This document shows positions 22,244-27,325 of a stretch of DNA of 64,000 nucleotides, piece after piece. The position numbers and the translations under genes are program-made. Source of the DNA: Myxococcota bacterium (lineage in GTDB: Bacteria > Myxococcota_A > UBA796 > UBA2385). The stretch lies in assembly GCA_044344255.1 (NCBI GenBank), contig JBIJDH010000001.1, positions 192,001 through 256,000 of the forward strand, written 5' to 3'. Position 1 is the stretch's first letter. Each line of letters starts with the position of its first letter. Under the pieces are notes generated by a model, which was not told where the DNA came from, made no database searches, and saw nothing but the letters and a program-made list of their open reading frames with translations.

Positions 22244-22370
22244 CGACCCGGCGAGAACCAAGGTTCAAGTCGGGTCGCTAATATGGTCGGGGTCACAGAA
22301 TGCATATCGAACTTTCTGGCTCGATTCCCAGGGGTGGGGAAGCGAGCGGGTGTTGGCGTTCGTGGCTGCT
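22244..22370. repeat. att-like junction B: hairpin arm Z + core (22284-22293) + arm Y
   Basis: 41 nt identical to junction A, then codon-level similarity to 22370; hairpin CGACCCG/CGGGTCG at 22244-22277. Confidence 0.88.
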
Positions 22371-22553
22371 TCGACCTCTCCCGAGCCCTCCCTATCCCTG
22401 GGGCACCTGCACCGGGCGCCTTAGCGTATCGAAAGCGGGCGCCCGTGGGCTGGTCCTCGACCTCACCCGGGCAGTTGGCCGAGTGGCGAGCCGCACGCAC
22501 CTCGCATCGTCGCATGGGTTGGCGTGCCTCAGGTCGTGCCGCTATGCTCCGTC

Positions 22554-24605
22554 ATGCTCCCCGCCCTCCTCCCCGTCCTCCTCCTCGCCTGCTCCACCCC
22601 GTTCCCGTGCGCGCAGGACGAGCTACTCGACGCCGACGGCAGCTGCGTCCCCGGCTCGAAGAACACCGGCGCCGAAGATGACACCGGCCTCGACACGAGC
22701 GACGACACCGGAGAGCCCCCGGACACCGACGACACCGCCCCCCAAGATGCCGACGGGGACGGCAGCACCGCCGACGAGGACTGCGATGACGGAGATCCGC
22801 AGACGTTCCCCGGCGCGGTCGAGGCCCGCGACGGACGTGACCAGGACTGCGATGGGTATGTCGACGAGGACGTGCCGGACCTGCTCTTCGACCTCGCCGA
22901 CCCGCGCCATGCGGTATGGGGTCTCGGGGCGAACATCTGGCCCGACGCCGATGCGTGGGTGGCCCCGTTGGACACGCTCCATGGGCGCCTCGTGCGCGCC
23001 AACCTGGGCCCGGTCTGGGACACCACCGGCGTGGATGTGCCGCTCGGCGGCGGCGCGTCGGACTACGACGCCTACGTGGCCTCGGCGATGGCGACGACCG
23101 GCTTCGGGAGCCTCGAGGACGCGCTCACCACGTCGGCCGAGATTGACCGCCTCGGCCTGGACCTCGTGCTCGTGAACTTCGAAGCCCCGTCCGAGATGGA
23201 GGCGTCGGGCGTCCTCCAGTCGGCGTACGTCGAGGACTACGCGCACCTCGTCGCGGCGCTGGTGGGCCACCTCGCCGACAACGGGATCGACGTCCCCTGG
23301 CTGGAGGTGACGAACGAGCCGGACGGCTCGTGGAACACCTATGTGTACCCGTCCGACTACTCGGCGCTGATCGTCGCCGTCCGCGCCGACCTCGACGCCC
23401 GAGGACTCGTCGACACGCGCATCGCGGGGCCGGGGCTCTCCACCCTCGCGCAGGGCGGCGCCTCCACGCGGTTCCTCGACGCGCTCACGCCCGACGCCGT
23501 CGCCGCGCTCGGCGCCTGGTCGGCCCACGGCTACGACGACACCTACGCGAACGGGGACGGCGTGACCGTGTTTCGCGACGCTGTCGCGGACTTCTCCGCG
23601 AGGACGCGCGAGGTCGATCCCGACCTGCCGTTTCTGCTCACCGAGTTGGCCTCGATGGACCCGAGCTACCATGGCGTCGCGACCGAGAGCCCTCTCACGT
23701 GTGGCGACTGGTCCTCCACCGAGGGATACGGCGTGCGGATGTTGACGTACACGCTCCTGGCGCTCGGGGAGGGGGCGTCGGCGGTCCTCCCCTGGCAGGC
23801 AGCCGACCCGGATTGGGGGGGGTGCTGGGGCAGCTTCGGCATGGTGGATGTCGAAGGGACGGCGCGCCCCTTCCTGGCCACCCTCGCGGCGTTGGCACAG
23901 GCGTTACCGGACGATGCCCGGCTTGTGGGCCCGGACGAGCGCGACCCGGCGATGGCTGTCGCCGGGTTCGTGGCCGAGGACCGCTTCGTCCTCGCGCTTG
24001 CCAACCCCACATCGGAGCCGCGCACCCGGACCATCGGATGGACCGGCGCCGACACCCTGGCGCTGACGAGCAGCGTCGGCGTTGGCGGCGCGTCGTACTC
24101 GGAGGAGTACGGGTTCGAGGACGTAAAGACCCTCGCCTTCGGCCCGGGCATCTGGCAGGACACCTCGAGCGCGGAGTACTTCGCGGACGACGACGCCCGG
24201 CTCGGCGGCGCCGGCGGGGCGTGGATCATCCTCGGGGACGGCACGCCCATCACCGACTTCACGCTCGACGCGTGGCGCTGGAGCGGGATCGAGTCCGGGT
24301 CGTTCGCCGTGGAGGCCAGCGAGGACGGCGTCACCTGGACCCCCGTGGCGGTCGACGAGGCCGTCGAGTCAGGTCCGTGGGATCGCGTGACGTTCACCCC
24401 GCCAGCGATGCTGGCGGGGTGCGGCTGGATCCGAGTGACATGGCCCACCCTCGATCCCGAGTGGGCGCTCGAGTTGGGCGGCGCCGCGCTCGACCTCCAA
24501 CCCGGCCCCCTCGAGGTTCCCGACCCCGGGCCCATCGGAGCCCCGCGTACGATCTCCGTGGAGGTCCCCGCCGAGAGCGGACTCGTCCTCGTGCTGTCCC
24601 GATGA
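22554..24605 (+). CDS. Lipoprotein: MopE-like Asp/Cys repeat + clan GH-A TIM barrel (GH30/39-like) + discoidin/CBM-like domain
   Basis: LLLAC lipobox; DADGDG..DCDD..PGAVE..DGRDQDCDG; NEPD acid/base; LLTE nucleophile; EASEDGVTW. Confidence 0.7.
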   Translation: MLPALLPVLLLACSTPFPCAQDELLDADGSCVPGSKNTGAEDDTGLDTSDDTGEPPDTDDTAPQDADGDGSTADEDCDDGDPQTFPGAVEARDGRDQDCDGYVDEDVPDLLFDLADPRHAVWGLGANIWPDADAWVAPLDTLHGRLVRANLGPVWDTTGVDVPLGGGASDYDAYVASAMATTGFGSLEDALTTSAEIDRLGLDLVLVNFEAPSEMEASGVLQSAYVEDYAHLVAALVGHLADNGIDVPWLEVTNEPDGSWNTYVYPSDYSALIVAVRADLDARGLVDTRIAGPGLSTLAQGGASTRFLDALTPDAVAALGAWSAHGYDDTYANGDGVTVFRDAVADFSARTREVDPDLPFLLTELASMDPSYHGVATESPLTCGDWSSTEGYGVRMLTYTLLALGEGASAVLPWQAADPDWGGCWGSFGMVDVEGTARPFLATLAALAQALPDDARLVGPDERDPAMAVAGFVAEDRFVLALANPTSEPRTRTIGWTGADTLALTSSVGVGGASYSEEYGFEDVKTLAFGPGIWQDTSSAEYFADDDARLGGAGGAWIILGDGTPITDFTLDAWRWSGIESGSFAVEASEDGVTWTPVAVDEAVESGPWDRVTFTPPAMLAGCGWIRVTWPTLDPEWALELGGAALDLQPGPLEVPDPGPIGAPRTISVEVPAESGLVLVLSR

Positions 24606-24694
24606 GGCGCACCCGGGGCTGGCGCGCGGTCGGCCTGCCGATGAACGGCCTCGTCGTCGCCTGTCACTCCCCGTCCGCCCGCTCGCCCGCCGCG

Positions 24695-26908: not shown

Positions 26909-27184
26909 GGGTCGTGGACCGCAATCGACCCGCCCTCTCGGCCGGCCGGGCAGAGACCACGTGTTGGACATCGGGCGGTTGCCGACGCCGCGGTTCTCTC
27001 CCCAGCCGTTGTCGGAGCCGACAGAACCAGCATTCGGCGACCTCCTCGACGACTTGACTGCGGCCAAGCCCAAGCTCGGAGACCGCCGCAACGGGGGCGG
27101 CGCTCGGCGGTGGTGTCGCCACGACCCTGAAGCGATTCGAACCACCTCACTCACATCGGCCGCGCGGGGAGCGATCCTGCTCCA

Positions 27185-27257
27185 TCGAACCCCCAAAAAT
27201 CAGGAAGGCCCGCCGAATCTCACGATTCTGACGGGCCCTCAAGAGGTTGGTCGGGGT
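27185..27257. repeat. att-like junction C: arm X + core overlapping the tRNA 3' end
   Basis: 70/73 nt identical to 21114-21186; hairpin at 27207-27237. Confidence 0.9.
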
Positions 27258-27325
27258 GAGAGGATTCGAACCTCCGACCTCCTGGTCCCGAACCAGGCGC
27301 GCTAGCCAGGCTGCGCTACACCCCG
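27248..27325 (-). tRNA. tRNA-Pro (anticodon CGG)
   Basis: CGGGGTG acceptor stem; anticodon arm CCTGG-TTCGGGA-CCAGG; GGTTCGAATCC T-arm; encoded CCA. Confidence 0.97.

Follow-up and report, generated by a model that had tools for sequence, protein, structure and literature searches.

The 64,000-nt stretch of a Myxococcota bacterium genome analyzed here (the window: positions 192,001 to 256,000 of contig JBIJDH010000001.1, assembly GCA_044344255.1) contains three related junctions, designated A, B and C, built around a core, TGGTCGGGGT, that begins at positions 21177, 22284 and 27248, respectively, and is antisense to the final 10 nt of a tRNA-Pro gene. ARAGORN places this gene, tRNA-Pro(CGG), at 27325..27248 on the minus strand. 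Junction A is composed of arm X, the core and arm Y; junction B of arm Z, the core and a second copy of arm Y; and junction C of arm X, the core and the tRNA. The 1107 bp from A to B (cassette 1) carry a parDE pair, and the 4964 bp from B to C (cassette 2) carry two surface-type genes. Comparative sequence analysis suggests that the three junctions bound two cassettes, both devoid of an integrase gene, that are stacked at the tRNA-Pro 3' end. The junctions were probably made by a tRNA-Pro-specific large serine recombinase (LSR) from outside the locus, which would cut at the CG of the core. Its attB box would be the tRNA T-loop, and its attP box the copy lying 5 nt further out in arm Y. The junctions comprise the following features.

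21050..21176, plus strand: arm X, the left arm of junction A, with a tRNA-like box at 21050 (-127 from the core), a second TCGAAC at 21114 (-63) and a hairpin at 21133-21169
21177..21186, plus strand: core of junction A, with the predicted crossover dinucleotide CG at 21181-21182
21177..21293, plus strand: arm Y of junction A, with the attP-type box (9-mer 21197-21205, TCGAAC from 21200)
22180..22283, plus strand: arm Z of junction B, with a tRNA-like box at 22180 (-104) and a hairpin at 22242-22279 that contains 22260-22268
22284..22400 (right end approximate), plus strand: core of junction B and copy of arm Y, with the predicted crossover CG at 22288-22289 and the attP-type box at 22304-22312
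27137..27247, plus strand: arm X of junction C, with boxes at 27137 and 27185 and a terminator-like hairpin behind the tRNA
27248..27325, minus strand: tRNA-Pro(CGG), whose antisense 3' end and T-loop correspond to the core (predicted crossover CG at 27252-27253) and the attB-type box (27263-27271)

The two X arms share 92% identity over 84 nt and the two Y arms 86% over 86 nt. The arm X of junction A is one of 36 X-like arms among the fetched loci, and its hairpin (21133-21169) would act as a terminator on the minus strand. The core common to the tRNA and Y sites spans only 7-10 bp. The hexamer TCGAAC, which we take by standard tRNA numbering to be the antisense of the tRNA T-loop, starts at offset 23 from the core in A (21200) and B (22307) and at offset 18 in C (27266), a difference of exactly 5 nt. 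A preliminary description of this DNA, made from the sequence alone, had drawn attention to this offset, and all of its coordinates hold.

Large serine recombinase genes end at the same core

Crossing PF07508 matches with tRNA-Pro ends in the order revealed, among the matches listed, at least seven LSR genes aimed into tRNA-Pro, six of which enter the residues W-S-G at the core in frame. A profile built from tRNA-Pro LSRs retrieved 80 metagenome loci, 29 viral loci and further genome loci. Distinct LSR left arms ending at the proline core number 41, of which 40 are in frame; 39 run into a tRNA arm and two into a Y arm. Among four full-length LSRs, Pfam recognizes Resolvase, Recombinase and zinc-ribbon domains in L134 and L129, and two of the three at threshold in L130 and L131. 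The predicted structure of a Y-tailed LSR (L159), which nests among tRNA-Pro-targeting LSRs in a quick tree, matches the structures of the SPbeta, Bxb1, phiC31 and LI integrases.

In three genomes of the same family (G001, G004 and G020), an LSR lies at the tRNA-Pro(CGG) beside rpe. The orthologous tRNA of G001 carries a 42-kb LSR island whose far end is an arm identical to Y at 33 of 35 positions, and no further junction was found between the LSR end and this Y-like arm. Another locus (L144) presents an LSR remnant followed by three Y joints that enclose two cassettes. These data support an LSR, with the T-loop as its putative attB box, as the enzyme family tied to the sites. The preliminary description had proposed that the missing enzyme was an LSR, that the T-loop served as its attB motif and that A and B were attP-like; all three proposals agree with the in-frame genes and their domains, with a box lying 5 nt nearer the core in the tRNA arm than in Y, and with the joining of a left arm to Y in A and B.

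We also considered arm X as the end of an LSR gene and rejected it, as it has no BLAST match to 47 LSR-sorted arms and shows 1-3-nt indels before the core. The sequence immediately following a tRNA-Asn matches an LSR C terminus elsewhere in this genome (G000:C56 ~39300 and G000:C36:275), suggesting that it harbours further LSR islands that read into the end of a tRNA.

The five-base box shift is conserved and recurs at other targets

Among arms located by homology of their downstream tail alone, the box lies at offset 23 in 16 of 16, in a set that is partly circular in that its seeds and some of its loci came from motif-containing searches. The 29 fetched viral loci, 24 of them with an LSR C terminus, serve as an independent test. 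In nine of the 24, the LSR end is joined to an arm of tRNA or tmRNA type and the box lies at offset 18 or 15; in eleven it is joined to a non-tRNA arm and the box lies at 23 or 20, several of these eleven sharing their left arm with a +0 partner; the other four LSR-end junctions have no scorable box. The +5 shift recurs at other tRNA and tmRNA targets in phage contigs of this LSR group, and the 5-bp spacing that the preliminary description expected of homologous arms is present in both sets.

In PMC3783163, the zinc-ribbon box of the LI integrase occupies half-site positions 16-24 of attP and, 5 bp nearer the centre, positions 11-19 of attB; PMC11722253 repeats the 5-bp rule and gives 4 bp for SPbeta. 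With CG as the centre, the 9-mer box described here falls at half-site positions 16-24 in arm Y and 11-19 in the tRNA arm, equal to those of the LI integrase. The attP-versus-attB spacing of 5 bp is thus found on the right half-site, for a predicted binding box, and the shift is likely the docking signature of a serine integrase carried by relatives at the same tRNA.

In the frame of the tail described below, the Arg and Thr residues encoded by the box use codons that are rare genome-wide (CGA and AGA together 9.5%, ACT 2%), pointing to a constraint on the box at the DNA level. Coding constraint as the sole cause of the box was rejected on the grounds of these rare codons and of the +5 shift in divergent phage arms.

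Arm Y encodes a putative recombinase tail

Read in frame with W-S-G, the tRNA arm of junction C presents a stop codon immediately after these residues and arm Y supplies a tail of 30-40 residues. At junction A, this open frame (W-S-G...N-A-Y-R-T-F-W, with its stop at 21291-21293) overlaps the box and would form the C-terminal tail of an LSR. Single changes past the box comprise 1541 synonymous and 1050 non-synonymous in the tail frame, versus 453/2022 and 343/1958 in the other forward frames, and 376/141 in the tail frame among pairs more than 85% identical; the pairs counted are not independent and one antisense frame partly shares the signal. Stop codons are present in the tail frame of 5 of 63 arms, compared to 21 and 15 in the other forward frames. 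As judged from these patterns of codon change, arm Y also encodes a conserved, swappable C-terminal tail of the predicted LSR. The integrase of myxophage Mx8, a tyrosine integrase, has its attP within the integrase gene and its C terminus swapped on integration. In the structural prediction for L159 the body is confident and the tail is helical with a pLDDT of ~40-50, at which a docking site for the tail is not readable.

The crossover centre is probably CG, and the inverted copy at B lies in a hairpin

The left arms of LSR genes share the letters C-9, A-8, T-7 and C-5, which mirror offsets 14-18 of arm Y; T-7 is present in 47/47 proline-core arms and in 43/51 other LSR arms. Scored against Y arms, the inner dyad peaks at C|G with 4.9 bits and falls to -5.4 bits at T|C, the Y arms, like the tRNA arms scored below, having been selected by a pattern at offset 16. 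The centre of the dyad is therefore probably CG (22288/22289) and not TC, the centre that the preliminary description had adopted.

That description had also pointed to an inverted copy of the box at junction B. Positions 22260-22268 read AAGGTTCAA, and their reverse complement matches 22307-22315 at 7 of 9 positions, mirrored about T22287/C22288. Over 28 positions, the TC mirror yields nine matches for B and six and four for the two arm X junctions, in line with the weak mirror already described for arm X. Among 42 LSR-sorted left arms, a mirrored outer box was found in one at the T|C position, most likely a Z-type cassette arm mis-sorted by the regular expression, and in none at the C|G position. 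Across 41 LSR left arms there is no conserved outer box, and a dyad on both halves was not found in them. In five Z-type arms, the inverted copy lies inside a hairpin, in four of which it forms a 4-bp inner stem, and one of them (L057) changes both strands together; four arms related to the arm Z of junction B share its fold. The inverted copy is real as a sequence, and these folds identify it as one strand of a predicted terminator hairpin; its proposed role as a mirrored box is not upheld.

A second TCGAAC box lies upstream of the core

A codon alignment of 34 LSR genes (from loci L128-L283) shows that, the core aside, synonymous change is most strongly constrained at -135 to -127 (G = 111 and 65, median 5). 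A TCRAAC starts at exactly -132 in 38/47 proline-core arms and 34/51 other LSR arms, and another at -212. A tRNA-like GAT-TCGAAY box is likewise found in 28/94 integrase-free arms and in 0/93 control windows; 13 of these 28 arms carry it at -125 to -129, with a mode of -127, the position it has at junction A (21050). In the window, such boxes lie at 21050, 22180 and 27137. Between -132 in LSR genes and -127 in cassettes the 5-bp difference is seen again, and this box is a candidate accessory binding site. The distances of the upstream cassette box showed no significant helical phasing (an 11-bp period fits 6 of 7 distance classes, p = 0.08).

Cassettes between the same arms occur in other genomes

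The cargo of the two cassettes in the window consists of the following genes.

21530..21814, plus strand: ParD-type antitoxin of cassette 1 (PF03693)
21811..22110, plus strand: ParE-type toxin of the same toxin-antitoxin pair (PF05016)
22554..24605 (start uncertain), plus strand: cargo gene 1 of cassette 2, ~683 aa, with a MopE-type metal-binding motif
24674..26908 (start uncertain), plus strand: cargo gene 2 of cassette 2, a pectate-lyase-like beta-helix protein (PF12708)

A pattern for arm Y matched in 32 of 154 genomes of the order, with no matches for the reversed control. It also matched at 48 loci in the GTDB collection; most of these records are titled as Myxococcota, Deltaproteobacteria or unclassified metagenome-assembled genomes (MAGs). 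There were no matches among IMG/VR viral contigs. Y junctions likewise lie upstream of the two remaining canonical tRNA-Pro genes in this genome, on C15 (2.3 kb) and C26 (16.6 kb). Many Y loci are arrays, with up to four Y joints ahead of the tRNA arm (L101 and L102), an arrangement that suggests reuse of the tRNA-side hybrid site. Complete cassettes (n=33) range from 1.1 to 16.6 kb, with a median of 3.0 kb.

A tblastn search with the recombinases of this genome yielded no match at any of the 48 Y loci, and a Pfam scan of 96 of the 103 candidate cassette ORFs, which were delimited heuristically, detected no serine or tyrosine site-specific recombinase family. The families found in the scanned ORFs include toxin-antitoxin genes, regulators, enzymes, surface proteins and two IS transposases. 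Cargo gene 1 shares 86-96% nucleotide identity with Y-framed cassettes in other genomes (L083, L119 and L084, and L062 and L074 of family f7), and the parDE cassette 84-87% with loci of another family, f4 (L056 and L044). Near-identical cargo between the same arm types across families indicates that the cassettes appear to have moved between families recently.

We examined contigs from 4 of the 24 public freshwater runs listed. Run X3 contains a near-identical strain with both cassettes; another two of its contigs (8.0 and 1.4 kb) have the depth of a single copy and terminate in these arms. In runs X11 and X13, a relative has arm X after cargo gene 1, without gene 2. The 1.4-kb Y-to-X contig was set aside as evidence of accretion at this locus, as its match ends 25 nt into the tRNA and it may belong to another tRNA-Pro. 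One contig, of depth 7, joins 27199 back to 21129 inside a 38-nt stretch common to both X arms, where a circle, a reordering and an assembly artefact are indistinguishable. No clean cassette circle was found in the four runs.

Toxin-antitoxin pairs are recurrent cassette cargo, and many X-type arms lie directly 3' of the end of a ParE/RelE-like toxin gene (L042, L083, L089, L092, L144 and G000:C26:45200-45580). Just 76 nt separate a tRNA-type from a Y-type junction at L122:2931-3038, where the left arm is duplicated to give a minimal tandem unit.

A model of cassette stacking and its alternatives

Under the proposed action of a tRNA-Pro-specific LSR, a cassette circle, in which the left arm is joined to Y, would recombine with the tRNA junction at CG. 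Specificity would reside in the right half-site, and the left arm would carry no fixed zinc-ribbon box, so that the tRNA-side product would stay a target. Each newcomer would push the older cassette outward and leave behind an attP-like joint, such as A and B, and the absence of a mirrored motif may be why cassettes pile up. In autonomous elements, the att site would lie inside the LSR gene, the integrated protein would end at W-S-G or at tRNA-derived residues, and the LSR would gain its Y-coded tail of 30-40 residues in the circular form or through a cassette inserted behind the gene.

Several observations weigh against this reading. The genome search called for by the preliminary description did find nine PF07508 LSR-type matches in this assembly, which is 95% complete, but none adjoins a tRNA-Pro or lies in the window, and the assembly contains no clearly cognate LSR. 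Its sole member of the LSR group (C9) has a non-proline core at its end and no box there, though a quick tree places it, on a long branch, beside two Pro-targeting LSRs; it is one of four Gln/Asn-type LSR ends without a tRNA (L177, L191, L221 and C9) that have no +5 box; at L152, the core is 5 nt shorter. None of the 36 X-like arms lies behind an LSR, and only three cassette left arms match LSR gene ends. The inner mirror base T-7 is present in just 20 of 61 cassette Y junctions and is missing from arm X, which may make X a poor half-site. A GTTCGA-like box whose position ranges from -23 to -19 is present in 24/97 cassette left arms, in six of them at exactly -21, the T|C mirror; this drifting box may play a loose role. 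Against tRNA arms, the dyad score of CG (2.8 bits) ties with that of a second centre (2.9 bits). Finally, one Y arm (G000:C15:99801) has a stop codon in the tail frame with its other changes mostly synonymous, as in a decaying tail.

It is possible, if unlikely, that a symmetric, canonical LSR is at work, with zinc-ribbon boxes mirrored about TC, B as a full attP and tandem insertion as a breach of directionality. The 7/9 mirror at B and the GTTCGA-like boxes of the 24 cassette left arms would fit such an enzyme, and the junction variation in phage pairs permits T|C as well as C|G. Nevertheless, exact T|C-mirror boxes are limited to 6/97 cassette arms and 1/42 LSR-sorted arms, the position drifts over 5 nt, the copy at B pairs within its hairpin and co-changes with the partner strand in L057, and the T|C dyad score is negative. 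Furthermore, a TC centre would place the box at positions 20-28, 4 bp past those given for the LI integrase in PMC3783163.

The junctions might also be remnants of dead LSR islands that lost their integrase by deletion, with stacking due to homologous recombination between arms or to hitch-hiking and not to an LSR acting on X-type arms. The lack of a cognate LSR in the assembly, the three cassette arms that are LSR gene ends, the missing inner mirror base of arm X and the contig joint within 38 nt common to two X arms are all compatible with this scenario, which we nonetheless find improbable given that cargo 86-96% identical lies between like arms in other families, that X is a conserved family unlike any sampled LSR end, and that the tail and the box are retained. 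A tyrosine integrase acting on the 10-bp core, with the +5 match as a by-product of tail codons, is largely refuted: 910 of 937 tycheposon integrases are of the tyrosine type, commonly at tRNAs (bioRxiv 10.1101/2020.12.28.424599), and the box does overlap the codons for Y-R-T-F, but the three PF00589 matches of the genome all lie away from the junction loci, five relatives show 0/42 such matches on Y- or LSR-bearing contigs, the box codons are rare, the +5 box persists in phage arms of different sequence and it is LSR genes that run into these junctions.

A broader extension of the proposed LSR mechanism is more speculative, and we hold it only tentatively. A widespread LSR group might use one-sided att sites: a zinc-ribbon box, borrowed from the universal T-loop, would be present on the tRNA-side half alone, and the other half would be set by a distant copy of that box brought in by looping, at -132 in the integrase gene (attP-like) and at about -127, half a turn away, in cassettes (attB-like). 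Each insertion might then regenerate the target, yielding an integron-like, last-in-first-out stack that needs no recombination directionality factor (RDF), in which a displaced element would have its integrase completed by the tail that the incoming cassette donates. Earlier work noted tandem accretion by serine integrases without an explanation at the level of the sites; the junctions described here make it a testable question of site architecture, as the 5-bp attP/attB rule is obeyed by one half-site and not by its counterpart. If the invariant T-loop serves as the attB box, this would account for the reach of one LSR group across tRNA-Pro, Val, Gln, Asn, Asp, Leu and tmRNA, and an integrase that regenerates its own landing site, if real, would permit serial gene stacking at a native tRNA. 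Cassettes of 1-17 kb, with toxin-antitoxin pairs, surface proteins and enzymes, appear to cross families of one freshwater order without an enzyme of their own.

Comparison with known integration systems

The preliminary description had called tandem insertion mechanistically unusual, which is overstated, as LSR-driven tandem insertion at a t(m)RNA end has precedent (PMC3146451; PMC13739063). According to PMC3146451, the ssrA islands of Dehalococcoides are arranged in tandem, the serine recombinase gene DsiB overlaps attL, 15 islands have no integration module, and accretion was proposed; its authors suggested that the DsiB gene is completed on the circle or by the adjacent island. The junctions described here resemble these islands in their tandem arrangement at a t(m)RNA 3' end, some elements having no integrase, and the LSR genes resemble DsiB (~540 residues, with a C terminus set by its neighbour) in that their 3' end overlaps the att site, in frame in 40 of 41. 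They differ in that Dehalococcoides islands target ssrA, with a 20-bp repeat and a crossover in the T-loop, and the system described here targets the acceptor end of tRNA-Pro, with a core of 7-10 bp. DsiB comes in a six-gene module that includes DsiA. We met no analysis of a +5 box in the part of PMC3146451 available.

The composite staphylococcal cassette chromosome (SCC) elements described in PMC13739063, which use Ccr recombinases, are LSR-driven tandem cassettes at one site, the oldest outermost, and include att-bounded islands without recombinase genes. Tandem LSR cassettes at a single site and recombinase-free islands are common to both systems; SCC elements differ in targeting rlmH, in their ccr gene pairs and in their larger size. 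With these and the Dehalococcoides precedents, the system is not categorically new. New here are the one-sided motif and the second TCGAAC box, at -132 in LSR genes and -127 in cassettes.

The LSRs share with the LI/A118, Bxb1, phiC31 and SPbeta integrases their domain set, fold and 5-bp rule and, if the centre is CG, their half-site positions (PMC3783163 and PMC11722253). Canonical phage LSRs, as represented there, have the box on both halves and, unless an RDF is present, leave attL and attR locked; the sites described here have a box on one half only, the arrays imply reuse of a hybrid site, and the att site lies inside the integrase gene. Whereas a canonical phage element encodes its cognate integrase, none was found in the window or at any of the 48 Y loci. 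Activity between two attP sites is reported in PMC3783163 for A118 and CcrA/B, a precedent for relaxed pairing.

Prochlorococcus tycheposons (bioRxiv 10.1101/2020.12.28.424599) are similarly additive islands anchored at tRNAs, tRNA-Pro included, but almost all carry tyrosine integrases and partial tRNA copies of ~40 nt; the hallmarks of a tyrosine-integrase tRNA island are lacking here, with no such integrase at the loci and a core of 7-10 bp. Literature searches of limited coverage yielded no account of the T-loop as an attB box or of one-sided LSR sites, and the accessible part of PMC12884075 contains nothing on such a system.

Further observations

To the left of junction A, the window contains genes for a LysR regulator, a GFA protein, an aldo-keto reductase and an LtrA protein (16519-20863). 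The presence of arm X at A implies an older element further left, and these genes may be the cargo of an older cassette with a decayed left border. A profile search of the genome found no Y-type left border for such an element, and the genes have no syntenic match among the loci collected.

Two further copies of the 10-nt core in this genome (G000:C47:940 on the plus strand and G000:C56:41379 on the minus strand) are followed by a Y-like arm with 3 extra bases. Both sit between a likely HTH regulator gene and a convergent pair of LSR genes, either by chance or as a related site.

Seven of the loci collected (L084, L088, L112, L117, L120, L081 and L127) are titled Klebsiella pneumoniae or Enterobacteriaceae; their arms are GC-rich, and the titles look like those of mislabelled freshwater MAGs. 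Four loci of the same order (L138, L139, L140 and L141) carry tandem repeats of a longer 3' fragment of tRNA-Pro, of the +0 type and without Y arms, the pattern of a second, different putative island system at the same tRNA.

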